Below are positions 3,487-60,621 of a stretch of DNA of 64,000 nt, piece after piece. The stretch covers positions 15,172 to 79,171 of the forward strand of contig JADFPD010000001.1 of NCBI GenBank assembly GCA_022562475.1, written 5' to 3'. This DNA is from Chloroflexota bacterium (lineage in GTDB: Bacteria; Chloroflexota; Dehalococcoidia; Lucifugimonadales; UBA3495). Both the position numbers and the translations under genes were made by a program. Each line of letters begins with the position of its first letter. The stretch's first letter is position 1. The notes beneath the pieces are model-generated. The model saw only the letters and a program-made list of their open reading frames with translations. It had not been told where the DNA came from and searched no databases.

Positions 3487-3679
3487 GCATTCCCTCGTGT
3501 GTGCTTTCGCCGAGTATACAGACTTCAGAAATGACATGCCAATCTATCATGGCAAGCAACGATGAGCCTGGCTGCGAGGCCGGTGGTGGACAAGGGCTGC
3601 CTGCCGACGCTAACATTCGGACGTGAATCAGCGCGGGCGTGAAGCCCGGCGGCCCCAGACCTTATTAAGGAGAATCCCC

Positions 3680-18735: not shown

Positions 18736-20127
18736 TTAGTCTTCCCTGAAGACCGCCGGGATTGTCACCCGGCCGATCTTTATCTCTGTTCTTAGGATCT
18801 CGCCCTCTTTGATGTCGTAGAGCGGGATCAGCGGCACCACCCTGGCGATGGTCAGCATCAGCATGGAGACCATGGCGAAGGTGCCTATGATAATGATCCA
18901 TTCCACCGAACTGGGCCGGTAGGTGTACCAGTCAAAGGTCAGCAACTGCTTGCGGGCCAGGCCGGGCACGATGATCAAGAACCGCTCCAGCCACATGCCT
19001 ATGTTCACCGAGACACACGCGAGGGACATGATCCACAGGTTCCTGCGCATGGACCTGCTGAGCCAGATGGAAACCGGCACGAAGTAAGTTAACCCCACGA
19101 ATATCATCATCCAGATGTTCCACGGGCTGACCGTAAACTGGAAGTTTCTGACGGCTATCTCGTCCGCCTCACGGCCGTAGAAGCCAAAGATGACTTCCAT
19201 CACGAAGAAGTAGAACCATCCGGTGGCCACCACGATCAGAAGCCGGGCCAGAGCATCGATATGCTCGTGACGGATATAGTTCTGCCAACTGTAGATGTAG
19301 CGCAGAATGATCAATACCAGGGCAACGGCCGACACCCCTGAGTGGACCGCGCCCACCACGAAGTAAGGGGCAAATATCGTTGAGTGCCAAGACTTGACGG
19401 AGACCGCCATTCCGAAGTCCCAGGACACTATGCTGTGCACCGAGACGAACACCGGAAGGATCAATGCCGATAGCAGGACCCCGGCGATAACCTGCAATTT
19501 CCATTGCCTGGCGTTGCCCTGCCAACCCATGGCCAGCATTCCATAGATGCGATGGCTGATACCGGTAGTACGGTCGCGCAAAACCGCGAAGTCAGGGATC
19601 AACGCCACCATGACGAAAAGGATACTCGACGTCAAATAGGTGTAAACGGCGCTGGGGTCCCAGACCAAAGGCGACCGGATGTTGGGCCAGATGCCACGGG
19701 CGAAGTCGAACGGGATGAACGGCAGCGTGTAGATCCAATAGACCGTGCGCCACGGGCGGCCGGTATGGATCAGCGGCATCATCATGGCTGTCATCAGCGA
19801 GAAGACGGTCAATATCTCGGCTGCCCGGGTGGCGGGACGCCGCCATTCGGCCTTGGACAGGCGTAGGATGGCCGAGAGCATCACACCGGCGTGGCTGATA
19901 CCGATCCAAAAAACGAAGTTGGTGATGAAGAAGCCCCACATCACCGGACGGTTCAGGCCGGTCACGCCGAAGCCTTGGTTGATCATGAAGCCGGCGGCGC
20001 TCATGGCGGCAAGCACGATGAAGCCAAGGATCGCAAGGGCCATGAAAAACCACTTGGGCGAGTTCAGGATACTGACCAGCAGTTCCCTGTTTACCTGTCT
20101 AGAATTTAGCGGTTTGCCTTCCTGCAT
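18736..20127 (-). CDS. actF: ACIII NrfD/PsrC-family integral membrane subunit (ActF-like)
   Basis: 463 aa polytopic NrfD-like protein. It is the second such paralog in the cluster. Confidence 0.8.
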   Translation of the reverse strand: MQEGKPLNSRQVNRELLVSILNSPKWFFMALAILGFIVLAAMSAAGFMINQGFGVTGLNRPVMWGFFITNFVFWIGISHAGVMLSAILRLSKAEWRRPATRAAEILTVFSLMTAMMMPLIHTGRPWRTVYWIYTLPFIPFDFARGIWPNIRSPLVWDPSAVYTYLTSSILFVMVALIPDFAVLRDRTTGISHRIYGMLAMGWQGNARQWKLQVIAGVLLSALILPVFVSVHSIVSWDFGMAVSVKSWHSTIFAPYFVVGAVHSGVSAVALVLIILRYIYSWQNYIRHEHIDALARLLIVVATGWFYFFVMEVIFGFYGREADEIAVRNFQFTVSPWNIWMMIFVGLTYFVPVSIWLSRSMRRNLWIMSLACVSVNIGMWLERFLIIVPGLARKQLLTFDWYTYRPSSVEWIIIIGTFAMVSMLMLTIARVVPLIPLYDIKEGEILRTEIKIGRVTIPAVFRED

Positions 20128-20154
20128 GATGCTCCGCCGGGTTAATACTTCGAA

Positions 20155-21585
20155 TTACTCAGGTTTGCCCAATATTAGATATTCGCCACGCATAAACTTG
20201 CCCCACTTTTGGTACAGCGTGCCTTCCTTGACCTCCCAGAGCGAGATCAAGGGCAGCATCTTGGTGGCTGCCAGGTAGATGAAGATGGCCGCGCCGAGTC
20301 CTCCGACCACCATGAAAACGTCCCAGACGTCCGGATAGACCGGCGCGGGAAGGTGTTCAAATGTCAAATTGTATATATCTGACCCAGGAGCGGCGTTGGC
20401 CGACCCGACAAAGACCCTGATGTTGAACATCAGGCCGCCGAACAGCACCATCAATCCGGCGAGGGCCGGCCCCCAGGCGCTGCGGCGAACGGGGTTCCAG
20501 AGCAGTACCGCAAAGGGCGCGGCAAAACTGAATATCAGGTTCAGAAGGAAGATTATGGCGTAGGTATCAACCACCAAGTATTTGATGATGTTCTGTTCCA
20601 CTTCCAACCGGCCGTACCAGAAGGTGATGAAGAAGGCGAACAGGTGGTAGACCCAAAGCAGGGTTACCCCCAAAAGCACTTTGCTGGCCGACCAGAAAGT
20701 CGACTTGCCGATATAGCCTTCGTAGCCGCCCCATCGCCGCATGATGAACAGGACGACGAGGATCGCGCCGAGGGACATCTGGAGGCTAGATATCGTGTAG
20801 ATAACCGGGAATATCGAGTCTTTCCACCCGGGGATCAAGCTCTGAGCGTAATCGGAGCTGATCACGAAATGTATGAAGACCAGAATCATGAAATAGAATG
20901 CGCCTAGCAGCGCAAGCCCCGCTTTCTGAGCGTTCCATTGACGCTTGGTGCCGTACCAATTACCGGCCAATTTGTTGTATAGCCAGCGTCTGAAACCGGT
21001 GGCGGTGAAGCGGCACTCGGCCATGTCCGGCATCGCGGATAACCAGAGTATCGCCAGGGACGTTATCGTCAGGAACGCAACCCCTACCAGGTCCCAAGCA
21101 TGAGGGGAGCCTATCGGGCCCTCGAACCAGATGGTCCTCCGGACTGCCATCTGGCCTTCCACAACCCCCTCTGGATTGCCTATGGACGGGAGTAAGAACA
21201 TCAGGGGGATGAACATTAGAAGGTTCAAGATTCCAACTATGGCAAACAGTTCCGCAACCCGTGAAAGTGGCCTGCGCCAGTGGCTCTTGGTGAAACGGAA
21301 TGCCACCGCCACCAAGGGCGCTCCGCTGGTAACCATAAAAACCATGGAGAAGATGGCCATGTAATAGCCCCAGGGAGCGATCTCGCCGAACCCGTCATCG
21401 ATGGCGCGGGCTATGAACCCCACGATGCCCAGAAAGAACAAGACACCGGTCACCGCCAAAGCCATGGTGAAAGGCTGAGGCATGGCCTTCGTCTTTTCCC
21501 CCATGTCTTGAGTCATCACCGTGGCATCGGGGAATACCCACATGCCGGCGTGTTGACCGTGACCCTTTGGTTCGATTACCGCCAT
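20155..21585 (-). CDS. actC: ACIII NrfD/PsrC-family integral membrane subunit (ActC-like)
   Basis: 476 aa polytopic NrfD-like protein. It starts 4 nt after the Fe-S subunit gene. Confidence 0.8.
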   Translation of the reverse strand: MAVIEPKGHGQHAGMWVFPDATVMTQDMGEKTKAMPQPFTMALAVTGVLFFLGIVGFIARAIDDGFGEIAPWGYYMAIFSMVFMVTSGAPLVAVAFRFTKSHWRRPLSRVAELFAIVGILNLLMFIPLMFLLPSIGNPEGVVEGQMAVRRTIWFEGPIGSPHAWDLVGVAFLTITSLAILWLSAMPDMAECRFTATGFRRWLYNKLAGNWYGTKRQWNAQKAGLALLGAFYFMILVFIHFVISSDYAQSLIPGWKDSIFPVIYTISSLQMSLGAILVVLFIMRRWGGYEGYIGKSTFWSASKVLLGVTLLWVYHLFAFFITFWYGRLEVEQNIIKYLVVDTYAIIFLLNLIFSFAAPFAVLLWNPVRRSAWGPALAGLMVLFGGLMFNIRVFVGSANAAPGSDIYNLTFEHLPAPVYPDVWDVFMVVGGLGAAIFIYLAATKMLPLISLWEVKEGTLYQKWGKFMRGEYLILGKPE

Positions 21586-21589
21586 CTAA

Positions 21590-22420
21590 CTAGGCCTTAT
21601 CCAACGGGAATGGTTCAACTTTCTTCAGGTAGATCACATTGGGCTTAGTGCCGATCTCTTCAAACAGCCGGTAGACACGGGTGTGGGCTTCATCAACGTG
21701 CCCGCCCTGATGCCGGGTCTCGATCTGTTCATTGGCCTCGTCGAAATACTCCTTCACCGGGCCGGTGTTGTCATTTTGGTCAGCGAATTGCAAAGCGTTG
21801 GTCGGGCAGGCCTGGACGCAGGCAGGCAGATAGTTGCCCTCTTTCATCTGACGGTAATTGAGTTTCCGGTCGGCGGCCGGGATCCTTTCGCCGGTCAAGG
21901 GCTCGATGCCGCGCCGTTCCACGTTCACCTCACCGCGGCGCAGGCGTTGCACGCAGAAAGAGCACTTCTCCATGATGCCCCGGGTCCTGATGGTCACATC
22001 GGGGTTCAACTGGTTCCGTAGGCTCTTCGGCCACTTCGGGTCCCAGAAGTTAAACATCCGGACGGTGTAGGGGCAGTTCACCGAACAATAGCGGGTCCCG
22101 ATACAGCGGTTGTAGACCTGTACATTCATCCCTTCGTCGTTGTGGTAGGTGGCGAACACCGGGCAAACCGGCTCGCAGGGTGCGTTCTCGCAGTGCTGGC
22201 ACATAATGGGGATGAACTTGGCCTTGACGTTGGGGAACTCGCCTTCCCAATACCGCTCGATGCGTATCCAGTGGTAGGCCCGCCGTTGCTGGTAAAAAGA
22301 CTTGGTATTTATCGGAATGTTGTTCTCTGCTTGGCAGGCCACAACACAGGCCTGGCATCCGGTGCACCGGTCCAGGTCCACTACCATTCCCCATTTATGG
22401 TCTATGCGCTGAGTAACCAT
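21590..22420 (-). CDS. actB: ACIII iron-sulfur subunit (ActB2; 4Fe-4S ferredoxin, PsrB/NrfC-like)
   Basis: Multiple Cys clusters: CTGCQACVVAC, CQHCENAPCEPVCP, CIGTRYCSVNCP and CVQACP. Confidence 0.88.
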   Translation of the reverse strand: MVTQRIDHKWGMVVDLDRCTGCQACVVACQAENNIPINTKSFYQQRRAYHWIRIERYWEGEFPNVKAKFIPIMCQHCENAPCEPVCPVFATYHNDEGMNVQVYNRCIGTRYCSVNCPYTVRMFNFWDPKWPKSLRNQLNPDVTIRTRGIMEKCSFCVQRLRRGEVNVERRGIEPLTGERIPAADRKLNYRQMKEGNYLPACVQACPTNALQFADQNDNTGPVKEYFDEANEQIETRHQGGHVDEAHTRVYRLFEEIGTKPNVIYLKKVEPFPLDKA

Positions 22421-22474
22421 TGATCAACCTGTCTCTTTGCGTTTTATCGTCGAATCGTCGCCGGCCAGGCGCCC

Positions 22475-24793
22475 TTAAGCGTTCTCCGGGGCGATGGTCT
22501 TGATGATTTCTTCACCAGGCGTCAGGCCGATCTCCACCGCCCTGACGTCGCCCTCCAACTTGGAGATGCTGATACTCTCCCCGGTCTTGGACACTCGCAC
22601 CCTGGTCCCGGCCCATGCCAAAGAGCCGGTGTCTTTCACCAGGGTCGTCTCCAATATGTCCATGACATTGGAGCTTTCGCTGCCGCTGCGGTCGGTGGCG
22701 TATTCCGACCCGTGCTTGCGCCCTTGGCCGAACGGCACGCTCACGGTATCGGGAGGCACGGCTGGCGTCGGGTAAGCCACGGCCCTGATGGAATCTTTGG
22801 AAGACGTTAGACGGAGGATGTCCCCTTCCTTCACTCCCATGCTTTTAGCCGTGGTGTCGTTCAACTCAACCCACGTCTGCCAAGTAACCGTGGACAATGG
22901 GTCCGGCGCTGCTTGGAGCCACGGGAGATGCCCATTGTAGCCGTCCAGTAGGGTGTTGTGGGCGAAAGGAACCAAGTAGAACGAATCGGCGCCGATGCCG
23001 AATCCATCAAATACAGGGCTCGACGCCTTCTCCGCGATGGTCCGTAAAAGCCCGTCGGCCGGCCGCACGCTGGTGGGGCCGTTACGGAGTTCGTCCCACC
23101 ACCCGCCGCGCCGCAGTAGGTTGTTCCAGAATTCATCGGCGGAAGACGCTTCGATGGAACCCCGGTTCAGATTGAACAAAGCGTCGGAGCCTTCCCGGAG
23201 CATGGCCTTGAAATTGGCCCACGGCAGGTCTGATTCCTTTCCGAGTTCCTGGGCCATGGTCAACAGAACGTCGGGGAAACTCAGGGGGTCAAGGTCGAAC
23301 AGCGGGTTCACCACCGGCTGTTGGAATCCCACGACCTGGTACCCGGGACCTGGTTCGGAGATATCGTCGCCCCAGTCCTCCAGATATACACGGTCGGGGA
23401 GAATGAGGTCGGCCATCACGCTGGTGTCGTCCAAGAAAGGCGAGAAGCTGACCACGAATAGGTCATTGGCCTGGGCGATGGCGTCCCTAAGTTGCAGGGA
23501 GTCGGGCAGGCCGTGCACCGGATCTGCGCCGTGCAGCAGTAACAGTTTCGTCTTTCCGCTGCGGATCTGGTCGGTAACGCGGGCCCAGTCTTCCAGGCTG
23601 CCCGCGGTGCTGGCGTTGGGGACATCGGCCCAAGGACTGGCGGGATTGAATTTGACCCCACCTTTTTTGCCGACGCTTCCCACCAGGAAGTTGAGGGCGT
23701 AGATGGCCTCCAAGTTGAAAAGGCCGTTGCTCTGGGCCCCGGCGGAGCCGCCGCCGATGGCGACGCTGGGCCGGTTGGCGGCGAAACTGCGGGCTAGGCT
23801 CTTCAGGAAATTCACCGGGTCTCCGCCGGTCATTTCCGGGGTTAGCCCGGCCAATGGGACCACGATCTCGGGCCGGAAGTTATTCAGGGTCTGGATGCCG
23901 GGAGCACCGCCGACCAGTGAGTCCACGTCGACGCCTCTGGCTTGGAGGTTCTCCGACACGATCACCTGGGCCAAGCTGAGCGCCAGGTAGCCTTCCCAAC
24001 CGGGCCGCACCGGCAGCCATTTGTCGGCGTTGGCCGCGGTCATGGAGAACCGGGAATCTATCTGATAGAACATGCCCCGGCCGCGCCCTGCGCCCTGGCG
24101 GAACTCGCCAAACCCACGGTTGAACCGGGTCGGAGAGACCCAGGTGGAAAGGAAATCCGCACCGAAGGAGAGGATGAACTTACTGTTCTCCAGATCGAAG
24201 TCGGGCAGAGAGTCCTGTTGGAAGACGTTCTTGACCGCGGTCCGGAAGGTATTGTTGTCGATGGCTTCAAAGCCCAAACGCTCGCCGCCGATGGCAGCTA
24301 CGAAGCGGTCTGCCAGAAGCGCCATGTGCCCTCTGAGGGGCTCGGTGATCATCACCGAAGATGAGCCGTTGGCCTGGAGAGCGCTCCGGAGAGAGTCCAT
24401 GCCGTTGGGCTGCCAATTGATCGGCAGAAACTCCCCTGAACCACGGGGGCCGCTGCGGCGCATGGGCGTCGGTATCCGGTCCGGATGGTAAAGGGCCTGG
24501 AGTCCTGCTTCGCAACGGGCGTGGGTCTTCCCTTGGTTGGTCGGATAGTAGGGGTTTCCCTGTATCTTCTTGGCCCGGCCTTCCATCACCCGTATGACGA
24601 TGCCCTCGCAAGACGGGCAGGTCCGGCACAGGCTGGCATACCAGTTGTCGCTTCCCCGGACCAGGTCTTCCGGCAATCGGACGGAGCTTTGGATATCCAA
24701 TTCTCCGCGACGGATGCCAAAGCCCTCACAAGCAACGGCTCCCACCGCGCCCAGGCCGGCCCAGGCAAGAAAATTTCGCCGGGTTAGTTTCAT
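22475..24793 (-). CDS. actB: ACIII molybdopterin-oxidoreductase-like subunit (ActB1) with Tat signal
   Basis: Twin-arginine signal MKLTRRNFLAWAGLG. The N-terminal Cys cluster is CRTCPSC...C. 772 aa with a molybdopterin-oxidoreductase fold. Confidence 0.85.
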   Translation of the reverse strand: MKLTRRNFLAWAGLGAVGAVACEGFGIRRGELDIQSSVRLPEDLVRGSDNWYASLCRTCPSCEGIVIRVMEGRAKKIQGNPYYPTNQGKTHARCEAGLQALYHPDRIPTPMRRSGPRGSGEFLPINWQPNGMDSLRSALQANGSSSVMITEPLRGHMALLADRFVAAIGGERLGFEAIDNNTFRTAVKNVFQQDSLPDFDLENSKFILSFGADFLSTWVSPTRFNRGFGEFRQGAGRGRGMFYQIDSRFSMTAANADKWLPVRPGWEGYLALSLAQVIVSENLQARGVDVDSLVGGAPGIQTLNNFRPEIVVPLAGLTPEMTGGDPVNFLKSLARSFAANRPSVAIGGGSAGAQSNGLFNLEAIYALNFLVGSVGKKGGVKFNPASPWADVPNASTAGSLEDWARVTDQIRSGKTKLLLLHGADPVHGLPDSLQLRDAIAQANDLFVVSFSPFLDDTSVMADLILPDRVYLEDWGDDISEPGPGYQVVGFQQPVVNPLFDLDPLSFPDVLLTMAQELGKESDLPWANFKAMLREGSDALFNLNRGSIEASSADEFWNNLLRRGGWWDELRNGPTSVRPADGLLRTIAEKASSPVFDGFGIGADSFYLVPFAHNTLLDGYNGHLPWLQAAPDPLSTVTWQTWVELNDTTAKSMGVKEGDILRLTSSKDSIRAVAYPTPAVPPDTVSVPFGQGRKHGSEYATDRSGSESSNVMDILETTLVKDTGSLAWAGTRVRVSKTGESISISKLEGDVRAVEIGLTPGEEIIKTIAPENA

Positions 24794-32850: not shown

Positions 32851-35800
32851 ATGAACGACGAGCGAAAAACCAAGAAACAGCTATTGGAAGACCTGAAGCG
32901 GGAGCGAGAACGCTCGATCGCGCTTCAGGACGTATCCAACCGGCTGGCAGGGGCCCACGACTCTGCTGAGGTCCTGGACCTCATTGTCAACGAGGCCACA
33001 CGGCTCCTAGGCGCGACCGCCGCGTGGATTCGGCTGATGGAGGGAGGCGTGCTGGTGCTTGCGGCAAGCACAACGGCGGCGGCGGGCTACCTTGCCGAGA
33101 TGGCGGAGATCAGTCCGGCCCTTTCAGTCGGGAAGGGCTTGACGATACCGGGCGAAGTGTTGGCCACCAAGAAGCCGTTTGCCGGTGTCGTTGCCGAAGA
33201 AACCAACATAACGCCACAAGCGCGTCAAGCCTTCGATAATTATGGGTTCCAGGGGATAGCCGTGATCCCTATGCTGGCGAATGACCGGCCGATCGGGGTA
33301 TTGATCGTGACGGACAGCCGCGAACGCCGCTTCACCGAGGATGAGGTCTCTCTCCTGATGGCCTTTGCCGACCAGGCGTCGCTGTCCCTGGAGAAGGCGC
33401 GCCTATTGAGTGAGGCAGGGCGTGAGAAAGATCGGTCCGAGGCGCTCGTCCAAGTTTCCAACCAACTGGCCGGCGTCCACGACACGGAAAAAGTGCTGGA
33501 CCTGATCGTGAACGAGGCCGCCCGGCTCGTGGGGGCATCTGCTGCGTATCTGCGGTTGTTGGAAGGAGGCGTTTTGGTTCCCAGCGCCGCCACGGAGTCG
33601 GCGGCAAGTTTTCTCGCCCAGCAAGCTGAGGTCCAGCCGGCCCAACCCGTCGGAGCTGGGGGGAGCATGGTGGGCCGCGTGATGGCCACCAAGAAACCTT
33701 ATCTAACGGAGGACGTACGGGAAAGCGAGATCATCAGTTCCGCCGGGCGTCTCATCTTTCAAACACATGGCTTCCAAGGCGTGGCCATTGTCCCACTGCT
33801 GGCTAATGACCAGTCCATAGGCGTGCTAACGGTGATGGACAAGCGTGTACGCCTATTCACCGATGATGAAGTCTCCCTCTTGGCCGCCTTCGCCGACCAG
33901 GCGTCTCTGGCCCTGGAGAAAGCCCGGCTCTTGAACCAGGCGGAGCGGGAGAAGGAACGCTCGGACACCCTCTACGAGATCTCCAACAAACTGGCCGGCG
34001 TCCACGACACCGACGATGTGTTGGACCTGATCGTCAACGAGGCTGCACGGCTCTTGGGCGCGTCCGGCGCCTGGATTAGGTTGCTGGACGGAAACGTGAT
34101 GGTACCAAGTGCCGCCACAGGGTCCGCCGCCGCCTATATCGCCGAGCAGGCCAAGATTAGGCCTACTCTCGCAGTGGGGGAGGGGGTGAGCATGATCGGT
34201 CACGTGATGGCCACTAGGAAACCCATGGTCGCCGATGATGTCCCAGATATTACGACTCCCGAAGTGCGCGCCATGCTCCACGAACATGGATTTTACGGGT
34301 CCGCCGCGGTTCCTTTGGTCGCCAACGACCGGTCCATCGGTGTGCTCACTGTCACGGACAGCCGCATCCGCCGATTTACTGAAGACGAAGTCTCCCTCCT
34401 GATGGCCTTCGCCGACCAGGCATCTCTGGCCCTGGAGAAAGCCCGGCTCTTGAACGAAGCGGAGCGGGAGAAGGAACGCTCCGAAGCCCTCTACCAAGTC
34501 TCCAACAAGCTGGCCGGTGCCCACGACACGGACGAAGTTCTGGACCTAATCGTGAATGAGGCTGCCCGGCTCGTAGATGCATCCGCCGCATATCTGCGTT
34601 TGTTGGAGGGCGAAGTATTAGTGCCCAGCGCCGCGACAGAGTCCGCTTCCGCTTATCTTGCCGATGCTGCCGAAGAGAGGCCGGCTATCGGAATTGGTAC
34701 AGCCTCGACGGGTCATGTGATGGCAACCAAGAAACCCTTGGTCGGAGATAATGCCCAGCGGCTAAGATCTCCAGAAGCGATTCGGAGTCTCAACGAACAC
34801 GGTTTTCACAGTTCGGCTCTGATTCCATTGCTGGCCAACGACCGGTCCATAGGAGTGCTCATCGTATATGACAAGCGCATTCGCAGCTTCACCGAAGATG
34901 AAGTTTCCCTTTTAACAGCCTTCGCCGACCAAGCGTCGCTGGCCCTGGAGAAAGCCCGGCTTTTGAACAATGCGGAGCGGGAAAAGGAACGCTCGGACAC
35001 CCTCTACGAGATCTCCAACAAGCTGGCCGGCGTCCACGACACCAACGAAGTGCTGGACCTAATCGTGAACGAGGCTGCCCGGCTCATCGGCGTGTCTGCG
35101 GCCTGGATTTTTTTGTTGGACGGAGAAGTGATGGTTGCCGGAGCCGCCACGGAGCCTGAACGAGGAATGCTTGCGGACATCGTCAATTTTAATCCAAACC
35201 TCAAAGCGGAAGAAAAGTCGAACGTGCTTGGCCATGTGATGGCCACCAAAAAACCCTTGTTCGGAGAGGATGCCGAGCAGATGATGTTTCCAGAAACTCG
35301 TCAGATCTTCCTAGAACACGGTTTTCAACCCAGCGCCAGCGCTAGTGTACCTCTGGTGACAAATGACCGGTCCATCGGCGTTCTCGCTGTGATGGACAAG
35401 CGGACCCGCCGTTTCACCGATGATGAAGTCTCCCTCTTGTCCGCCTTCGCCGACCAAGCGTCGCTGGCCTTGGAAAAAGCAAGACTCTTGAACGAAGCGG
35501 AGCGGGAGAAGGAACGCTCGGACGCGCTCTACCGAGTCTCCAACATGCTAGCGGGAGCCCACGACACGGGCGAAGTTTTGGACCTGATCGTGAATGAGGC
35601 TGCCCGGCTCGTCCATACAGACGCCTCTTATTTCCATCTGTTGGATGAAGAAAACTTGGTGATCGGCGCCAATACCGATTCCGTATCCGGGTATCTCGCA
35701 GAGGCACCAGCTCTCCTAGTTGGGGAAGGGACTAGCATTGCGGGTCACGTGATGGCCACCAAAAAACCACTGGTGGTGGAGGATGTGACGGAAAATGAAT

Positions 35801-38346
35801 TGATCTCTCCCGCACGGCGCCTGAAACTTGAAGAACACGGGTTCCATGGTAGGGCTTCAGTTCCTCTGCTGGCCAATGACCGCTCGATAGGCGTGCTAGC
35901 TGTTATGGACAAGCGTATACGCCGCTTCACCGAGGATGAAGTCTCACTTTTGATGGCCTTCGCCGACCAGGCAGCCCTCGCCCTAGAGAAGGCGCGGCTC
36001 TTGAACGAGGCGGAGACGGAGAAGGAACGCTCGGACGCCCTCTACCAAGTCTCCAACCGGCTGGCCAGCGTCCACGACACAGACGAAGTGCTGGACCTGA
36101 TCGTGAACGAGGCCGCCCGGCTCGTGGGGGCGTCCGCAGGGTATATGCGGTTGTTGGAAGGAGACGCATTGGTGATTCGCGCCAGTACGGACTCTGTTGC
36201 CGACTACCTTGAAGCAAGCAACTCGACCGTCCCCGTCGAGGAAAGGACAAGCAATGCGGGACATGTGATGGCTACGAGGAAGCCATTGGTCAGCGATGAC
36301 GCGGCAGAGGATGAATTCATTCACCCCGAACAACGTCTGATACTCAAAGAACACGGGTTCCACGGGAGAGCTTCAGTTCCCCTGGTGGCCAATGACCGGT
36401 CCATCGGCGTGCTCGTAGTCATAGACAAGCGCATCCGCCGATTCACTGACGACGAAGTCTCTCTATTAACAGCCTTCGCGGACCAAGCCGCCCTGGCACT
36501 GGAGAAAGCCCGGCTTTTGAACGAGGCGGAGCGGGAGAAGGAACGCTCGGACGCCCTCTATCAGGTCTCCAACCGGCTGGCCGGCGCCCATGACACGGAC
36601 GAAGTTCTGGACCTGATCGTGAACGAGGCCGCCCGGCTTGTCGGCGCGACAGGAGCCTACATCCGGCTGTTGCAGGGAGATCAGTTGGCATCCAGCGCCA
36701 CCACCGATTCCGTAGCTGATTTTGTTGCCGAGATTATTCCGGCCGTTTATGTGGTTGGACAAGATTGGAACATGATGGGCCATGTGATCGAAACCAAGAA
36801 ACCCTGGGTCACAGAGGACGCCGTGGAGGATGAGCGAAGATCTCCAGAGGGGCGTTCCTTGTGCAAAAAATACGAGATCCACGGAACGGCTGCAATTCCT
36901 CTGATCGCCAACGACCGCTCAATCGGCGTTCTTAATTTAATGGACAACCGCGTCCGCCTCTTCAGCGATGATGAAGTTTCCTTGCTCACTGCCTTCGCCG
37001 ACCAAGCGTCGCTGGCCCTGGAGAAAGCCCGGCTCCTGAACGAAGCGGAGGCCCGGGAGCGGCAGGCCACCCAACTCTATGAGGTAACCTCACAACTGGC
37101 CTCCAACCACAACCTGGATAGCGTGCTGGACTTGATAACCCAACAAGCTGTCGAACTTACCGGCGGAAAACGTGGGGCGATTTTCCGCTACGACGAAGTT
37201 AGGAAAGGCCTTGTCGTTGCCACCATGCACAACCACCTCCCGGAATTCCGGGACATGTTTATTCGGCCCGGCGAAGGGGTTTCCGGGCGCGCCTATGACC
37301 TGCGAAAATCGGTTTGGACAGATGACCTTAATCACGATGTTTCGGTCGTATATTCTGATGATGAATCCGAAAAACTTGCGAGGAGAACGGATTCAGAATT
37401 GGCAATGGGCGTTGTGTCCGCTCCCATCATGATTCAGGACGAGGTATACGGTATCCTCTGTGTGACTTTTCACAGGCGCAAAGAGTTTTCCGACGACGAG
37501 GTTAATCTGGTCCAGAACCTAGCCGACAGCGCCGCAGTGGCCATCAACAACGCCCGGTTCATCGAGGATACCCAGCGGGCCCGGGACGAAGCGGAAGAAG
37601 CCAACCGGACCAAGAGCGAGTTCCTGGCCAATATGAGTCACGAACTGCGCACCCCGCTCAACGCCATCATCGGCTACAGCGAGATGCTGCAAGAAGATGT
37701 CGCAGGTCTTGAGAACGAAGAATTCGAGGAAGACCTCGAGCGGATCAACGGCGCCGGCAAACACCTGTTGGGCCTGATCAACGACGTCCTGGACATCTCC
37801 AAGATCGAGGCCGGCGCCATGGACATCTATCTGGAGACATTCCCCCTTGAGCCCATGATCCAAGACGTGGTGACTACCATGCGGCCCTTGGTGGAAAAGA
37901 ACTCCAACACCCTGGAGGTCGATTGCCCGGGTTCCGTGGGCTCCATCCACGCGGACACGACCAAGGTCAGGCAAGGTCTGTTCAACCTGCTCAGCAACGC
38001 CAGCAAGTTCACCGAACAGGGGACGATCTCCCTTAATATTAGCCGGGAGACCCGCGAAGGCCAAGATTGGATCAACTTCTCCGTAGCTGACACCGGTATC
38101 GGCATGACCGAAGAACAGATGGGAAAGCTATTCGAGGCGTTCACCCAGGCGGAGGCCTCAACCAGCCGACGTTACGGCGGCACGGGGTTGGGCCTGGCTA
38201 TCACCCGCCATTTTTGCGAGATGATGGGGGGCACAGTGTTGGTGGAAAGTGAGCTTGGCAAAGGGTCGACGTTCACCATGAAACTTCCGGCGGTCGTGGA
38301 AGACTCGCTGGGAACACAGGTGGCCGAACACGGAGATTCGCAATGA
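32851..38346 (+). CDS. soluble multi-GAF sensor histidine kinase (9 x GAF + HisKA + HATPase_c)
   Basis: 1831 aa with no TM segment. There are nine GAF modules separated by LEKARLLNEAEREKERS coiled-coil linkers. The H-box is MSHELRTPLNAI and the ATPase boxes are DTGIGM and GGTGLGLAI. Confidence 0.92.
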   Translation: MNDERKTKKQLLEDLKRERERSIALQDVSNRLAGAHDSAEVLDLIVNEATRLLGATAAWIRLMEGGVLVLAASTTAAAGYLAEMAEISPALSVGKGLTIPGEVLATKKPFAGVVAEETNITPQARQAFDNYGFQGIAVIPMLANDRPIGVLIVTDSRERRFTEDEVSLLMAFADQASLSLEKARLLSEAGREKDRSEALVQVSNQLAGVHDTEKVLDLIVNEAARLVGASAAYLRLLEGGVLVPSAATESAASFLAQQAEVQPAQPVGAGGSMVGRVMATKKPYLTEDVRESEIISSAGRLIFQTHGFQGVAIVPLLANDQSIGVLTVMDKRVRLFTDDEVSLLAAFADQASLALEKARLLNQAEREKERSDTLYEISNKLAGVHDTDDVLDLIVNEAARLLGASGAWIRLLDGNVMVPSAATGSAAAYIAEQAKIRPTLAVGEGVSMIGHVMATRKPMVADDVPDITTPEVRAMLHEHGFYGSAAVPLVANDRSIGVLTVTDSRIRRFTEDEVSLLMAFADQASLALEKARLLNEAEREKERSEALYQVSNKLAGAHDTDEVLDLIVNEAARLVDASAAYLRLLEGEVLVPSAATESASAYLADAAEERPAIGIGTASTGHVMATKKPLVGDNAQRLRSPEAIRSLNEHGFHSSALIPLLANDRSIGVLIVYDKRIRSFTEDEVSLLTAFADQASLALEKARLLNNAEREKERSDTLYEISNKLAGVHDTNEVLDLIVNEAARLIGVSAAWIFLLDGEVMVAGAATEPERGMLADIVNFNPNLKAEEKSNVLGHVMATKKPLFGEDAEQMMFPETRQIFLEHGFQPSASASVPLVTNDRSIGVLAVMDKRTRRFTDDEVSLLSAFADQASLALEKARLLNEAEREKERSDALYRVSNMLAGAHDTGEVLDLIVNEAARLVHTDASYFHLLDEENLVIGANTDSVSGYLAEAPALLVGEGTSIAGHVMATKKPLVVEDVTENELISPARRLKLEEHGFHGRASVPLLANDRSIGVLAVMDKRIRRFTEDEVSLLMAFADQAALALEKARLLNEAETEKERSDALYQVSNRLASVHDTDEVLDLIVNEAARLVGASAGYMRLLEGDALVIRASTDSVADYLEASNSTVPVEERTSNAGHVMATRKPLVSDDAAEDEFIHPEQRLILKEHGFHGRASVPLVANDRSIGVLVVIDKRIRRFTDDEVSLLTAFADQAALALEKARLLNEAEREKERSDALYQVSNRLAGAHDTDEVLDLIVNEAARLVGATGAYIRLLQGDQLASSATTDSVADFVAEIIPAVYVVGQDWNMMGHVIETKKPWVTEDAVEDERRSPEGRSLCKKYEIHGTAAIPLIANDRSIGVLNLMDNRVRLFSDDEVSLLTAFADQASLALEKARLLNEAEARERQATQLYEVTSQLASNHNLDSVLDLITQQAVELTGGKRGAIFRYDEVRKGLVVATMHNHLPEFRDMFIRPGEGVSGRAYDLRKSVWTDDLNHDVSVVYSDDESEKLARRTDSELAMGVVSAPIMIQDEVYGILCVTFHRRKEFSDDEVNLVQNLADSAAVAINNARFIEDTQRARDEAEEANRTKSEFLANMSHELRTPLNAIIGYSEMLQEDVAGLENEEFEEDLERINGAGKHLLGLINDVLDISKIEAGAMDIYLETFPLEPMIQDVVTTMRPLVEKNSNTLEVDCPGSVGSIHADTTKVRQGLFNLLSNASKFTEQGTISLNISRETREGQDWINFSVADTGIGMTEEQMGKLFEAFTQAEASTSRRYGGTGLGLAITRHFCEMMGGTVLVESELGKGSTFTMKLPAVVEDSLGTQVAEHGDSQ
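32905..37560 (+). repeat. in-frame tandem repeat array (period about 513-525 bp, 9 GAF units) inside the kinase gene
   Basis: The CTGGAGAA(A/G)GC linker motif recurs at 33388, 33913, 34432, 34945, 35470, 35983, 36499 and 37018. Neighbouring units share long near-identical nucleotide runs. Confidence 0.9.
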
Positions 38347-53274: not shown

Positions 53275-53691
53275 ATGTTGTACCTACTCAAGGGATGCGG
53301 AAAATGCGGCGGCGACCTTTCGCAGGATGGCGACGAATGGCGCTGCTTCCAGTGCGGCCGCGTCTACTACCCGGCGCACTCTCCCGAGGAACTGAATTTT
53401 GACCGGATAGACGTCGAGTCTTCAATAGGCAACGGTGAGGCAACCTCAGACCGCGAACGGCCCATCGTCCGCCGGTCGGCCCGCCATCTAAATCCTGTGG
53501 TTGGGGCCACTAGGTATAACGAAGAACTGTGGTGGAACAAGAACCAGCAGGTGATATTCCATCTTGACGAGGGCAAGAAGGTGCGGGAGATCGCCAAGAT
53601 CGTTGGCCAGGGCCCCAGGCAGATCCGCGTGGTCCGTGAGCGGCTCCGCGATCTACGCTCCGCGGAACCGGAGTTGGTGGCCGTCGGCTGA
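53275..53691 (+). CDS. small zinc-ribbon plus HTH protein (putative transcription regulator)
   Basis: 138 aa. The N-terminus carries CGKCGG-x10-CFQCG. The C-terminus carries the HTH-like KKVREIAKIVGQGPRQIRVVRERL. The RBS is GGTGA. Confidence 0.55.
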   Translation: MLYLLKGCGKCGGDLSQDGDEWRCFQCGRVYYPAHSPEELNFDRIDVESSIGNGEATSDRERPIVRRSARHLNPVVGATRYNEELWWNKNQQVIFHLDEGKKVREIAKIVGQGPRQIRVVRERLRDLRSAEPELVAVG

Positions 53692-56046: not shown

Positions 56047-56168
56047 CACCACTTCGCTGGCATTCACCTACCGATGGGCGGCCTGGTGAATTATTGGAGC
56101 GCCTCCCCGGTGTTGGAAGCGCTGGGAAAATCGGGGTCCACCATGACTCACAGTGAGGAGCATTAATC

Positions 56169-56813
56169 ATGGGTTTCTTTGATGCCATATTAGGGTTTTT
56201 CAAAAGTGGCTCGGGGACGCCTGGCTCTCCAGGCGAAAAGGGAGATAAGGGAGATAAAGGTGATAAGGGTGACCCGGGCGAAGATGCGGTGGGTCCTCAG
56301 CTGATCAAACTGCCGGTCAACTTCGTTTTGGTTACTTCGACGCTCAACATCAACCGGATGCTTCCGGTAAGAACAGCCATGACGGACGTGAAAGCGTTCT
56401 GGGCCCTGCTGGACATTGACATCCAGCCTCGTATCTCCGGGATGGTTGCAGATGAAAACATCCTTACTTTCGATATCGCGAGTCCGGAACTCATAGACCG
56501 TCATTTCTGGGAGGTCCGGGGCAATCCATTGACCTTGTACATCGGATGGGAATCAACGAGGGTCGGCGATGACCTATTGGGGCAAGCTAGAGCTGACGGC
56601 CTCGCCATCGTGGCGGGTGGGAATGCGCTACCTGGAGGCGGCAACCTGATGGCCGATATCATCAACCATGAACTCGGCCACCTTCTGGGCCTGGGCGCCG
56701 GCCACGTAGAAGGCACATTTATGCGGGAGATTGTTGACGTGCCAAACGATACCGTTACCGCTGACCAGCGAGTGATACTCAAGGCCACTGCGTACGAGCT
56801 CGGAGGGTTTTGA
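56169..56813 (+). CDS. collagen-like (GXY)8 repeat protein with C-terminal HExxH zinc-metalloprotease-like motif
   Basis: 214 aa with the RBS GAGGAG. The collagen stretch is GTPGSPGEKGDKGDKGDKGDPGED. The metalloprotease-like motif is IINHELGHLLGLGAGH. It is AT-richer than its neighbours and I see no signal peptide. Confidence 0.65.
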   Translation: MGFFDAILGFFKSGSGTPGSPGEKGDKGDKGDKGDPGEDAVGPQLIKLPVNFVLVTSTLNINRMLPVRTAMTDVKAFWALLDIDIQPRISGMVADENILTFDIASPELIDRHFWEVRGNPLTLYIGWESTRVGDDLLGQARADGLAIVAGGNALPGGGNLMADIINHELGHLLGLGAGHVEGTFMREIVDVPNDTVTADQRVILKATAYELGGF

Positions 56814-56828
56814 CCCGTTACGGGTGTT

Positions 56829-56857
56829 CCGTTCGTGGTGAGCCTGTCGAACCACCG
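56829..56857. repeat. short intergenic hairpin element (family with 27023-27050)
   Basis: In CCGTTCGTGGTGAGCCTGTCGAACCACCG, the stem GTGGT/ACCAC flanks the conserved GAGCCTGTCGA core. Confidence 0.4.
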
Positions 56858-56937
56858 TTGTTAAGCAGTCATTTTCAACAGCAGCACGACTTATGCGGGT
56901 CCTTCGGCGGGCTCAGGAAGAGTGGAGCCGGGGAGGC

Positions 56938-58780: not shown

Positions 58781-58833
58781 GGTAGGGACACACATTGGTG
58801 CGCCTGAAATCGGCCACCGGGACGTATTACTGC

Positions 58834-60621
58834 ATGCAGACCAATCTCAACCGCGGGGCGGACGTCGCCCTATTCATTGACTGGGAAAACTTCAAGATCA
58901 GCCTGGCCGTAGGCCACCGCACCCCCAACGTTTCCGCACTAAAGGAAGAAGTCTCCAACCACGGACGCGTGGTGATTGCCAAGGCCTATGCGGACTGGGT
59001 TACCAGGGCCCCCGAACTCAGGGGCGCCAGCCAGTTTCTAAACGACCCTCCCTCCCTCTACGCCGCCGGCATCGAGCCGGTGTTCGTGCCCACCCGGGCC
59101 CCCTCTCCCAACGCCACCAACGCCAACGGAATGCGCACGAGCCGCATCAAGAACAGCGTCGACGTCAAGATGACCGCCGACTGTATCGAGATTGCCCACT
59201 CGTACCCCAACATCGGCACCTTCGTGCTGGTTTCCGGAGATTCCGACTTCATCCACGTCGTCAACGCCCTCCGCACCATGGGCAAGCATGTGATCGTAAT
59301 CGGCATCTCCTGGAGCACTTCACGCCGTCTGGCCGACCAGGTTGACACTCTGATCCTCTACGACGTGGATGTTGACCCCCCGGCACCCTCCGAGCCCGCC
59401 ACCCCCGCCGCCGCCCCCACCGCCGATACCGCTGCCGCCAGCGCCTCGGCCGGGGACCTGAATGACATGATCCAGGCCATCGAAGACATTATCCGGGACG
59501 AGCGTAAGGCCGGCGGCAACCCGCTGTTGACCTCCATCAAGCAGCGTTTGGTGCGCCGATATCCCGAGTTTGACGAGAAGAAACTGGGCTACTCCGGGTT
59601 CAAACGCCTGATGGCCCGCGTGGCGCAGAACGGCAACGTCCGGCTGATCACTGCCGGTTTGGTAGACTGGGCCATCATGTCCGACGAAGAAATCCCCGAG
59701 GGCGCCACCGAAGCCACATTCTCCAGTCCCGGCGCTCGGCTAGGACGGCGTAGGGGCCGCCTTCCCCGTTCCAGACAGCGCGATGAGACCCCGATTCTGG
59801 AACCTGTTAGCTCCGAGTTTGACGATACTTCGGTTGTCGAGGATACCGAAACCGACCACGAACCTACCCCGGCGATCGCAACCAACGGACAGCATGACCA
59901 TGACAACCAGCCGGAGCACTCGTATCAATCGGACGAAGGCGAGCCTGCCGGTTCCGGTTCTCCCTTTGGCAGCAACGAGGAATTAGCCCAGGCCCTGCAG
60001 GATGCAATCAGCGGTTTGGGCATGCCTGCTGAACCGGACGACGGAATGCTGGCCGAACGCGTCTCCGACCTGATCTTCATGGCAAATACCCTGGAACACC
60101 AGGAAGGGGTCAGTCATGTCGCTTTCAACTTCCTGGCCTCCGAGATCTGCGACGCCCTTGGCCAGGGGCTGGACGCGGGGCACCCAGAGATCACCAAACG
60201 ATGGGGCCAGTCCAGTTCCCGTCCTTACGTGAGCAAGATCCTTCGCAGCCTGAGCGACGGGGAGTTCTTCCTGAAGGGCAACCATAGTTGGCGCGATGAG
60301 ACATCCGGCCAGAACCGCCGCCGCCGCACTTTCAACCTGAACCACGAACACCCGTTGGTGCAGCAGGTGATCGCCGCCCGTTCTAGCGCTGTCGCTGAGA
60401 CCGCAGACGAGGAAACTGATCCAGCCGTTGACCAAATTGATTCACCGGAATCCCCAGAATCTGCCGCGATCATGGAGAATGGCGCTTCCGAGGAGGAGAG
60501 CCCGGATGTGCCCGACAGCCCAGACTTCGACGACGAAGACTACGAATCTGGCAAATCGGCGGCCGAGGCCCGCGCCGAGACCGGTTTCATCTCCCGGCTG
60601 TTCCGGCCCCGCCGAAATTAA
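58834..60621 (+). CDS. NYN (LabA/DUF88) nuclease-domain protein with OST-HTH/LOTUS domain and long acidic disordered regions
   Basis: The NYN domain reads VALFIDWENF...KNSVDVKMTADCIE...VLVSGDSDFIHVVNALR. The LOTUS-like domain reads LTSIKQRLVRRYPEFDEKKLGYSGFKRLMARV. The start could instead be the TTG at 58795. Confidence 0.8.
   Translation: MQTNLNRGADVALFIDWENFKISLAVGHRTPNVSALKEEVSNHGRVVIAKAYADWVTRAPELRGASQFLNDPPSLYAAGIEPVFVPTRAPSPNATNANGMRTSRIKNSVDVKMTADCIEIAHSYPNIGTFVLVSGDSDFIHVVNALRTMGKHVIVIGISWSTSRRLADQVDTLILYDVDVDPPAPSEPATPAAAPTADTAAASASAGDLNDMIQAIEDIIRDERKAGGNPLLTSIKQRLVRRYPEFDEKKLGYSGFKRLMARVAQNGNVRLITAGLVDWAIMSDEEIPEGATEATFSSPGARLGRRRGRLPRSRQRDETPILEPVSSEFDDTSVVEDTETDHEPTPAIATNGQHDHDNQPEHSYQSDEGEPAGSGSPFGSNEELAQALQDAISGLGMPAEPDDGMLAERVSDLIFMANTLEHQEGVSHVAFNFLASEICDALGQGLDAGHPEITKRWGQSSSRPYVSKILRSLSDGEFFLKGNHSWRDETSGQNRRRRTFNLNHEHPLVQQVIAARSSAVAETADEETDPAVDQIDSPESPESAAIMENGASEEESPDVPDSPDFDDEDYESGKSAAEARAETGFISRLFRPRRN

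Follow-up and report, generated by a model that had tools for sequence, protein, structure and literature searches.

The window analyzed here (i.e., the whole 64,000-nucleotide stretch of contig JADFPD010000001.1, from an uncultured Dehalococcoidia bacterium of the phylum Chloroflexota) contains a small gene for a 214-amino-acid protein that joins a short N-terminal helix, a collagen-like stalk and a C-terminal catalytic head. We identify the head with high confidence as a zinc peptidase of the metzincin clan, and we infer that it is very probably an active zinc endopeptidase. No specific metzincin family among those tested fits the head, and we conclude that it represents an unannotated family within the clan, because the window protein stays below the threshold of every Pfam, NCBIfam and PHROG model. 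For the protein as a whole we favor, with some reserve, a reading in which a homotrimeric collagen-stalked protease with an N-terminal anchoring or bundling helix circulates in phages, one copy of it having been retained by a host under purifying selection.

A search of 5.8 billion proteins returned 13 homologs of the window protein (E = 4.5e-96 to 5e-9), all of them unnamed and without a precomputed Pfam domain. Another ~60 small proteins (160 to 290 amino acids) with the same C-terminal domain came from a profile search among 1.84 billion cluster representatives, and the cluster members are all either labeled "hypothetical protein" or nameless. The family is taken here as ~70 cluster representatives at 50% identity; conservation counts refer to 67 aligned members, and counts of motif spacing and collagen triplets refer to 66 (P and L numbers denote individual proteins and loci, respectively).

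Five residues (i.e., G138, H167, E168, H171 and H179) are invariant in the 67 aligned members, which reach down to ~25% identity. All but G138 lie in the motif HELGHLLGLGAGH (residues 167 to 179), which is part of the segment INHELGHLLGLGAGH (residues 165 to 179; H167 is encoded at nucleotides 56667 to 56669 and H179 at nucleotides 56703 to 56705). Farther along the chain, T183, F184 and M185 form a candidate Met-turn and are kept in 63, 62 and 59 of the 67 members, respectively, and Q200 is kept in 66. M185 stands 6 residues after H179 and is replaced by Leu, Ile or Val in the remaining 8 members. The family consensus HELGHLLGLDHEEGTFM is the canonical metzincin pattern HExxHxxGxxH with a Met shortly after it. 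The gap between HExxH and the third His measures 5 residues in 43 of 66 members (consensus HELGHLLGLDH), 4 residues in one and 6 to 11 residues in 22. In the window protein it measures 7 residues, through a 2-residue insertion (GLGAGH versus GLDH) that is common to its closest orthologs. A previous sequence-only reading of the window had proposed an HExxH metalloprotease-like core with the third His displaced by two residues. Both statements are supported: homologs exist (13 close ones and ~70 cluster representatives), the site is kept in the 67 aligned members, and the displacement is an insertion particular to one subgroup of a family that is mostly canonical.

Profile comparisons point to the same clan. 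The window protein matches Pfam Peptidase_M10 (PF00413) over residues 162 to 195 with 16.2 bits (E = 0.01), short of the gathering threshold of 24 bits, and 30 of the 67 members match this model, the best at E = 3.9e-7. The other Pfam matches across the 67 members (i.e., Metallopep, Reprolysin_2 to _5, M66 and Astacin) are also of metzincin type, and besides Collagen there are two marginal exceptions (Zincin_1 in 2 members and Peptidase_M48 in 1). Collagens aside, a profile search of PDB sequences retrieved metzincins exclusively (ADAMTS-5, EcxA, BaP1, adamalysin II, ulilysin and fragilysin, plus an astacin). The PHROG matches were all to the G-X-Y stretch of tail-fiber families, and none was to the catalytic domain.

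According to structure prediction, the fold of the catalytic domain is that of a metzincin. AlphaFold2 with the 67-sequence alignment gave a model with a mean predicted local distance difference test (pLDDT) score of 90.5, which rises to ~97 over residues 45 to 214 and also stands at ~97 in the insertion region of the zinc motif. Its topology is beta-alpha-beta-alpha-beta-beta-beta followed by the active-site helix (residues 161 to 175) and a C-terminal helix (residues 198 to 211); the predicted strands span residues 46-56, 83-93, 122-126, 138-141 and 145-149, and the two remaining helices span residues 61-79 and 107-116. These elements agree with the fold expected of metzincin catalytic domains, which comprises a five-stranded sheet (one edge strand being antiparallel), a backing helix, the active-site helix and a C-terminal helix. 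All of the top 50 Foldseek matches in the PDB are metzincins (E down to 2e-7; template modeling [TM] score, 0.55 to 0.65), with adamalysins, snake-venom metalloproteinases, ADAM8, ADAM33, ADAM17, fragilysin and archaemetzincin among them. An earlier, shallower model gave the same metzincin picture, with archaemetzincin 2x7m on top. The best viral match was a 199-amino-acid "matrixin family metalloprotease" of Maribacter phage Colly_1. The structural comparison thus returned a protease fold, and it corrected the sequence-only reading in one respect. That reading let the domain end at the HExxH motif; instead, the domain covers residues 45 to 214, with GTFM and the C-terminal helix after the motif. 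The likeness to snapalysin in particular, which that reading had named beside metzincin-type zinc sites, found no support: the best fold matches are adamalysin/ADAM proteins, fragilysin and archaemetzincin.

The stalk (residues 16 to 39) consists of eight uninterrupted G-X-Y triplets (GTP GSP GEK GDK GDK GDK GDP GED), as the sequence-only reading had counted them. KGD/KGE pairs, in which it is rich, stabilize hydroxyproline-free collagen. Against Pfam Collagen (PF01391) the stalk scores 15.8 bits (E = 0.012), under the gathering threshold of 27.2 bits because the G-X-Y run of the window protein is short; 26 of the 67 family members match this model, the best at E = 8.3e-11. Part of the stalk is encoded by 9-bp units at positions 56241 to 56267 (GGAGATAAG, GGAGATAAA and GGTGATAAG), for which Tandem Repeats Finder (TRF) reports a period of 9, 3.6 copies, 86% matches and a score of 50. 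The threefold 9-bp repeat of the sequence-only reading therefore stands as a tandem repeat, and its units are imperfect copies instead of identical ones.

The number of triplets varies between orthologs at the same locus, as had been foreseen: P0003 has 7, the window protein and P0001 have 8, P0004, P0006 and P0008 have 10 to 11, and the ortholog at L003 has ~24. In this last case (L003, positions 2754 to 3551), the full open reading frame (ORF) comprises 265 amino acids with ~24 G-X-Y triplets and the conserved start MGLIDAILGLFRG, and the gene caller had given 185 amino acids. Database entries of the family may often be truncated at the N terminus inside the repeat. Across the family, 32 of the 66 members have at least 4 triplets, and the maximum is 25 in total in P0040, with a longest run of 19. 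The stalk as a whole ranges from 0 to 25 collagen triplets and/or HxH-rich spacers, and in stalkless members the N-terminal helix abuts the first strand of the head. HxH-rich spacers occupy the position of the collagen stalk in seven members, with 10 HxH motifs in each of P0063 and P0068, 8 in P0075, 7 in P0081, and 3 each, along with collagen triplets, in P0013, P0053 and L103. Recurring GHxH and DDRY-x-x-x-GHGH units were seen in these His-rich spacers, which stand in place of the collagen stalk or next to it. In trimeric phage tail fibers such as T4 gp37, HxH motifs act as staples that bind iron (PMC11705849), and the spacers of all seven members resemble these iron-binding repeats.

Among the orthologs, the residues at the X and Y positions turn over completely (GEK/GDK type versus GPA/GPS type), and Gly is kept at every third position. 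Retention of the Gly periodicity despite this turnover is a signature of selection for a triple helix and not for a flexible linker. Since a triple helix needs three chains, the window protein is most likely a homotrimer, in which three heads would be carried on a rod of ~7 nm. The stalk and the head also differ in their nearest relatives. The N-terminal helix and stalk of the window gene (56169-56300) are 78% identical to those of P0003 (L005), the head of which is only 66% identical, while the head (56301-56810) is 82 to 83% identical to those of P0001 and P0002 (L095 and L003), the stalks of which are only 46 to 52% identical. This mosaic suggests recombination or stalk swapping between lineages, or rapid replacement of the stalk.

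The N terminus of the protein follows a pattern common to the family (i.e., M-x-Phi-Phi-x-x-Phi-(Phi)-x-Phi-Phi-[RK]-G), with MGFFDAILGFFK in the window protein and MHLFQTLAQLFRG or MSILETIRELFRG in other members. The helix of the window protein has a hydrophobic moment of 0.49 and a mean hydrophobicity of 0.58, and exceeds 99% of shuffled sequences in amphipathicity; of 32 N termini compared across the family, 15 surpass 90% of their shuffled versions in this respect. AlphaFold places a helix at residues 4 to 11, with low confidence. Neither a Sec- or Tat-like signal nor a 19-residue hydrophobic window was seen in the window protein by inspection or in the homologs by Kyte-Doolittle scans, in agreement with the sequence-only reading, which had noted no signal peptide. 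The label "cytoplasmic-looking" that it gave the protein takes its whole basis from this absence, and phage proteins can reach the cell exterior without a signal peptide. One family member (P0056) begins with a lipoprotein-like signal (LLLVAC). The window protein contains no Cys.

The window gene is a real and conserved gene under purifying selection: pairwise dN/dS values over the catalytic domain are 0.12 to 0.34 among the same-locus orthologs and P0009. Its ORF starts with ATG and encodes 214 amino acids plus the stop, and a longer ORF is excluded by an in-frame TGA at positions 56154 to 56156. The ORF and the GAGGAG ribosome-binding site 8 nucleotides upstream of it are as previously read. 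The coordinates of the features are collected in Table 1. Neither a sigma-70 promoter nor an intrinsic terminator was found around the gene.

Table 1. Features of the metzincin gene and its immediate surroundings (positions in the window)
Feature	Position	Strand	Basis
Coding sequence of the collagen-stalked metzincin	56169..56813	+	ORF list, 13 homologs, dN/dS versus orthologs
Shine-Dalgarno-like GAGGAG	56155..56160	+	8 nucleotides 5' of ATG; read from sequence
Amphipathic helix GFFDAILGFFK, residues 2-12	56172..56204	+	Family conservation; hydrophobic moment; AlphaFold
Collagen-like stalk, 8 G-X-Y triplets, KGD/KGE-rich	56214..56285	+	Sequence; Pfam Collagen E 0.012
Imperfect 9-bp tandem repeat encoding GDK GDK GDK	56238..56269	+	TRF
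Predicted metzincin-fold catalytic domain, residues 45-214	56301..56810	+	AlphaFold model and Foldseek
Zinc-binding motif H167-E-L-G-H171-L-L-G-L-G-A-G-H179	56667..56705	+	Conservation in 67 sequences
Candidate Met-turn T183-F184-M185	56715..56723	+	Conservation; place beneath zinc inferred from fold match
Probable REP-like insertion	56827..56916	.	Core 56827-56856; imperfect inverted arms 56838-56855 and 56899-56916

The closest homologs (P0001 to P0004) share the chromosomal locus of the window gene, in the order zinc-dependent alcohol dehydrogenase (zinc-ADH), dihydrodipicolinate synthase (DHDPS)-like gene, metzincin gene, two convergent short-chain dehydrogenase/reductase (SDR) genes, NYN-domain gene and GH63-like gene. 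The window copy is a single, stand-alone chromosomal gene that is inherited vertically. The NAD synthetase of the window shares 84% identity with its counterpart in a Dehalococcoidia metagenome-assembled genome (MAG), and its best 80 matches (57 to 84% identity) are all from Dehalococcoidia, Chloroflexota or SAR202 MAGs. By its third-position G+C content (GC3), the metzincin gene is foreign-looking among its neighbors (0.609, compared with 0.775 +/- 0.043 in 15 neighboring genes, i.e., ~3.9 standard deviations low). The lower overall G+C content remarked on in the sequence-only reading was reproduced (0.550 versus 0.615 in the same 15 genes), and GC3 is low in the same-locus orthologs as well (0.64 to 0.68). 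The NYN-domain gene (58795-60621, + strand), which is syntenic in all orthologous loci, encodes a 608-amino-acid protein that begins with a nuclease domain of the NYN/LabA-like type and ends in a long tail, acidic and of low complexity; a weak PADLOC NYN match (E = 3.4e-6) was obtained for it. A role of the metzincin itself in anti-phage defense was considered and set aside, PADLOC having given nothing for the window protein or two homologs.

Six of the eight non-orthologous contexts of the family are phage or phage-like, and two positions recur in them (i.e., the neighborhood of tail fibers and the stretch that immediately precedes the packaging genes). The chromosomal contexts are that of the window group, among syntenic metabolic genes, and that of P0009 (L006 to L008, marine), beside a gene for a giant WD40 protein and one for a luciferase-like monooxygenase. 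In the phage loci L009 and L010, the order is helix-turn-helix (HTH) protein, DnaC-like protein, RusA, a 141-amino-acid ORF, the metzincin gene, two small ORFs, TerS, TerL and portal; in the phage locus L107, RusA, HNH and a 162-amino-acid ORF precede the metzincin gene, and TerL, portal and capsid follow it. Among the phage-like loci, L091 and L099 to L101 (Hainich groundwater, 0.1-um fraction) have the gene after tail-fiber-like proteins, and L092 and L103 have it in arrays of small co-directional ORFs. In L108 and L109, also phage-like, the gene adjoins an eCIS_core (DUF4157) protein gene and an HNH gene. Locus L106 is unclassified; there, the gene belongs to a long unannotated block of co-directional genes, which also encodes small membrane proteins and an eCIS_core protein.

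Two further observations were made at these loci. Directly 3' of the metzincin gene in L100 (2680-4137) and L101 (2954-4342) lies a gene for a 462- to 485-amino-acid protein with ~25 tandem repeats of ~18 residues (ISTITGTLIKQSRNIYSG), which has no informative PHROG or Pfam match and may be a fiber or spike shaft. The eCIS_core genes (DUF4157, HExxHVxQ type) near the metzincin gene are located at 13409-13888 (-) in L106 and at 3118-3618 (-) in L108, and P0011 (L093, 1507-2505) is an apparent fusion of a weak, sub-threshold eCIS_core-like N terminus (E = 0.0057) with the metzincin head. There may be a functional link between the eCIS_core and metzincin modules, both of which are of zincin type.

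In the reading that we favor, residues 45 to 214 would be a minimal metzincin catalytic domain in which H167, H171 and H179 bind zinc, E168 acts as the general base and M185 forms the Met-turn beneath the metal. Residues 16 to 39 would assemble into a three-chain G-X-Y rod of ~7 nm with the three protease heads at its end, and the 11-residue N-terminal helix would serve either to nucleate or bundle the three chains or to attach the trimer to a partner surface (e.g., of a virion, envelope or membrane). The module would circulate in phages as a fiber-like or accessory protein, and a marine or subsurface Dehalococcoidia lineage would have kept one copy as a single gene. Its relatives are mostly phage-borne, and the window copy was probably captured from a phage. 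Several observations weigh against this reading. A run of eight triplets is short for a triple helix to be stable without the help of flanking elements, and the zinc motif of the window protein is 2 residues longer than the canonical metzincin spacing. The window copy is not in a prophage and has no virion or phage genes within 10 kb or more; together with the lack of a signal peptide, this leaves the host copy without an obvious route to the surface. The phage positions are heterogeneous (i.e., structural module versus pre-terminase region), so that a role in the virion is not established. In addition, tblastn searches with the window protein and P0042 gave no match among 50,697 cultured phage genomes (INPHARED), and scans of IMG/VR gave nothing or one partial match. 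This metzincin family is rare; in GTDB species genomes, there was no relative among the 600 pattern matches listed.

The helix and the lack of a leader also admit a different reading, in which the protein is a membrane-tethered cytoplasmic protease with its helix in the inner leaflet, a G-X-Y or HxH spacer that sets the distance of the head, and membrane-proximal proteins as substrates, cleaved on behalf of the host or during phage takeover. Such helices for membrane targeting are carried by SepF, MinD and FtsA. The helix of the window protein is short, very hydrophobic and significantly amphipathic (a moment of 0.49, in the top 1% of shuffles), it is retained even in stalkless members, and no signal peptide or transmembrane segment occurs anywhere in the close family. 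Leaderless cytosolic metzincins exist (e.g., archaemetzincin, a top fold match), and the early or pre-terminase phage copies (L009, L092, L103 and L107) would fit a role in host takeover. We nevertheless consider this reading unlikely. The known natural collagen-like segments of bacteria and phages are extracellular, spore-surface or virion fibers; the strict G-X-Y periodicity and the HxH repeats are features of trimeric rods and not of flexible linkers; the lipoprotein-like signal of P0056 places its head outside the cytoplasm; and several copies adjoin tail-fiber-like genes. The homotrimeric, phage-circulating protease that we prefer could be carried further, to phage "protease fibers" a previously unrecognized class in which homotrimeric metzincins on collagen-like or HxH metal-stapled shafts, with a minimal anchor helix of 11 residues, would be used by phages of Chloroflexota and of uncultured groundwater and marine bacteria to cut through proteinaceous envelopes (e.g., S-layers), with one copy domesticated by marine Dehalococcoidia for remodeling of their own envelope; in this full form we hold the idea to be quite unlikely.

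The gene order in phages bears on a third possibility, that the protein is a lysis enzyme, i.e., a protease-type "endolysin" digesting a proteinaceous envelope (e.g., an S-layer) from within when infection ends, of which the host copy would be a remnant. Lambdoid phages keep their lysis genes just upstream of the terminase, the slot just 5' of the terminase is the one that the gene occupies in L009 and L107, and in L091 and L106 it follows tail genes, which is another usual position for lysis. Small transmembrane proteins are encoded nearby in L103, L106 and L108, and some Dehalococcoidia are without peptidoglycan and have S-layers. However, no transmembrane segment is encoded by the ORFs directly flanking the gene in L009, L091, L092 and L107, and a holin partner is thus not consistently present; known endolysins are built with neither a trimeric stalk nor an anchor helix at the N terminus; and lysis partners are entirely missing around the window copy. 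These points make an endolysin distinctly improbable. We assign a very small probability to a catalytically dead, structural fiber protein in which a metzincin-like head serves as a binding or trimerization knob. The 2-residue insertion of the window subgroup breaks the HExxHxxGxxH spacing, and the Met of GTFM is Leu, Ile or Val in 8 of 67 members, as a dead head would allow; but the invariance of the three His residues and the catalytic Glu in 67 sequences with identities down to ~25% is hard to explain without catalysis, and the insertion region is itself modeled with a pLDDT of ~97.

Downstream of the gene, the sequence-only reading had reported a repeat element at positions 56829 to 56857. 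It does recur in related loci, and it is present as a single copy within the window. The interval between the convergent stops (56814-56937) contains ~115 nucleotides more than in the orthologous loci L003, L005 and L095, where the element is missing and the stops are ~10 nucleotides apart. A 30-nucleotide core, GTCCG[CT]TC[AG]TGGTGAGCCTGTCGAACCAC, recurs in the related Dehalococcoidia loci L003, L033 and L095 (twice in the last). The insertion ends beside a degenerate second copy of the 3' end of the gene (CTTCGGCGGGCTCAGG, versus TTCGGCGGGTTTTAG in the orthologs), which looks like a target-site duplication. The element is probably an insertion resembling repetitive extragenic palindromic (REP) sequences or miniature inverted-repeat transposable elements (MITE), to judge from these features of its sequence. 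Its hairpin is imperfect and no more stable than those of shuffled sequences (z = -0.6).

Other genes of the window deserve mention. A 1,831-amino-acid histidine kinase (32851-38346, + strand) carries an unusually extended sensor array of approximately nine GAF domains in tandem, after which come HisKA and HATPase_c. On the opposite strand, positions 18736 to 24793 encode two NrfD-like membrane subunits, a 276-amino-acid ORF and a 772-amino-acid molybdopterin oxidoreductase, and a CcmF-like cytochrome c maturation gene (14919-16916) adjoins this cluster. The cluster may be a respiratory module of the complex-iron-sulfur-molybdoenzyme type. A 138-amino-acid ORF (53275-53691, + strand) with an N-terminal CxxC...CxxC zinc-ribbon-like motif was also called in L001, and it has no Pfam or PADLOC match.

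Metzincins are well studied, yet this family of 160- to 290-residue proteins was missed by Pfam, NCBIfam and PHROGs. It is unusual in the variable distance to the third zinc ligand, a spacing usually treated as fixed, and in having its catalytic head fused to collagen-like or HxH shafts, with an anchor helix of 11 residues in front of them. Should the trimeric reading be true, the window protein would be a compact natural enzyme displayed on a bacterial collagen rod, of interest to collagen engineering and to the discovery of phage depolymerases, and it could point to the way in which phages breach protein-based envelopes in lineages that are difficult to culture, the Dehalococcoidia among them. 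As a membrane-tethered cytoplasmic protease, it would instead present a collagen motif in a rare intracellular use. Either way, it is a defined, small, cysteine-free target for expression and assay.

Among known proteins, the adamalysin/ADAM peptidases (M12B) are the best fold matches (i.e., 1qua acutolysin C, 1iag adamalysin II, 4dd8 ADAM8 and 1r54 ADAM33; E = 2e-7 to 1e-6; TM score, 0.54 to 0.65), aligning over the whole domain in ~190 columns. They share with the window protein a zinc site of the HExxHxxGxxH type (with the 2-residue insertion in the window protein), a Met-containing turn and then a C-terminal helix, and the profile-to-sequence matches also span the whole domain, at only 11 to 17% identity. 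The window protein differs in having no disulfides, no pro-domain and no signal peptide, and its domain is ~170 residues long, compared with ~200 in adamalysin. Assignment to M12B (reprolysin/adamalysin) was rejected, given that H179 is followed by Val (Glu, Gln or Asp in the family, which has the consensus H-E-E/D-G-T-F-M) and not by Asp, that the protein has no Cys and that it gave no Reprolysin match at E values up to 10; Reprolysin_2 to _5 are matched weakly by 1 to 12 of the 67 relatives. Archaemetzincin (M54; AmzA of Methanopyrus kandleri, 2x7m), which led the Foldseek list for the first model and came 16th for the second, is a small, leaderless, single-domain protein, as is the window protein. 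As in the window protein, few residues separate the third His of archaemetzincins from the Met; archaemetzincins also have a Cys4 second metal site (HCxxxxCxM). The fold is similar, but the window protein has no Cys, neither it nor the 67 relatives match Peptidase_M54, and archaemetzincin, unlike the window family, has neither a stalk nor an N-terminal helix; M54 was therefore rejected as well.

Matrixins (M10A) provide the best Pfam family (PF00413), which the window protein matches over the zinc-site helix, and fragilysin (M10C) structures are among the top fold matches. The protein was not accepted as a matrixin, at 16.2 bits against a cut-off of 24 and with no Ser after the third His; compared with matrixins, it also has no identifiable second structural zinc or calcium sites, no cysteine-switch pro-peptide and no secretion signal. 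Glu follows the third His in 35 of the 67 family members. The astacins (M12A) were rejected because the protein has neither RxDRD nor MHY, and Pfam Astacin is matched by 1 of 67 members (E = 0.0059). Snapalysin (M7), a secreted enzyme of ~130 amino acids with the motif HExxHxxGxxD, was rejected in view of a third ligand that is an invariant His and not an Asp, the missing signal peptide and the lack of a Peptidase_M7 match; it is also absent from the top 50 fold matches.

For the architecture, the nearest parallels are found in phage fibers. The streptococcal prophage hyaluronidase HylP and collagen-like minor tail proteins are leaderless and have short G-X-Y segments in a trimeric shaft with an enzymatic or binding head, and hyaluronoglucosaminidase 6x3m and phage fiber 6v8i were matched through the G-X-Y region. 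In contrast to these proteins, whose head is a beta-helical lyase or a receptor-binding knob, the window protein has a metzincin head. Across its family, the complete chain comprises only 160 to 290 amino acids, and the N-terminal attachment is a segment of ~11 residues and not a domain. The bacterial surface proteins Scl1 and Scl2 (Streptococcus) and BclA (Bacillus) likewise have hydroxyproline-free charged G-X-Y triplets, strain-variable repeats and an adjoining globular domain. Weak matches to SclA and BclA were obtained (NCBIfam SclA, 14.5 bits versus a cut-off of 400). They differ in their export or anchoring signals (a signal peptide with LPXTG, or exosporium targeting), in far longer collagen segments and in heads that are not enzymes. 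Collectins, C1q and collagen-tailed acetylcholinesterase are analogous in design only: their heads are trimerized on a collagen rod with a short N-terminal bundling or anchoring segment, and they are eukaryotic, secreted and hydroxylated proteins without homology to the window protein. Our literature searches turned up no bacterial or phage metzincin described as being linked to a collagen-like region, and no curated family model covers the protein, which agrees with the sequence-only reading that no characterized family unites collagen with HExxH. What is new here is the combination of domains, the variability in where the third ligand stands and an apparent domestication by a host; the catalytic chemistry is expected to be that of conventional metzincins.

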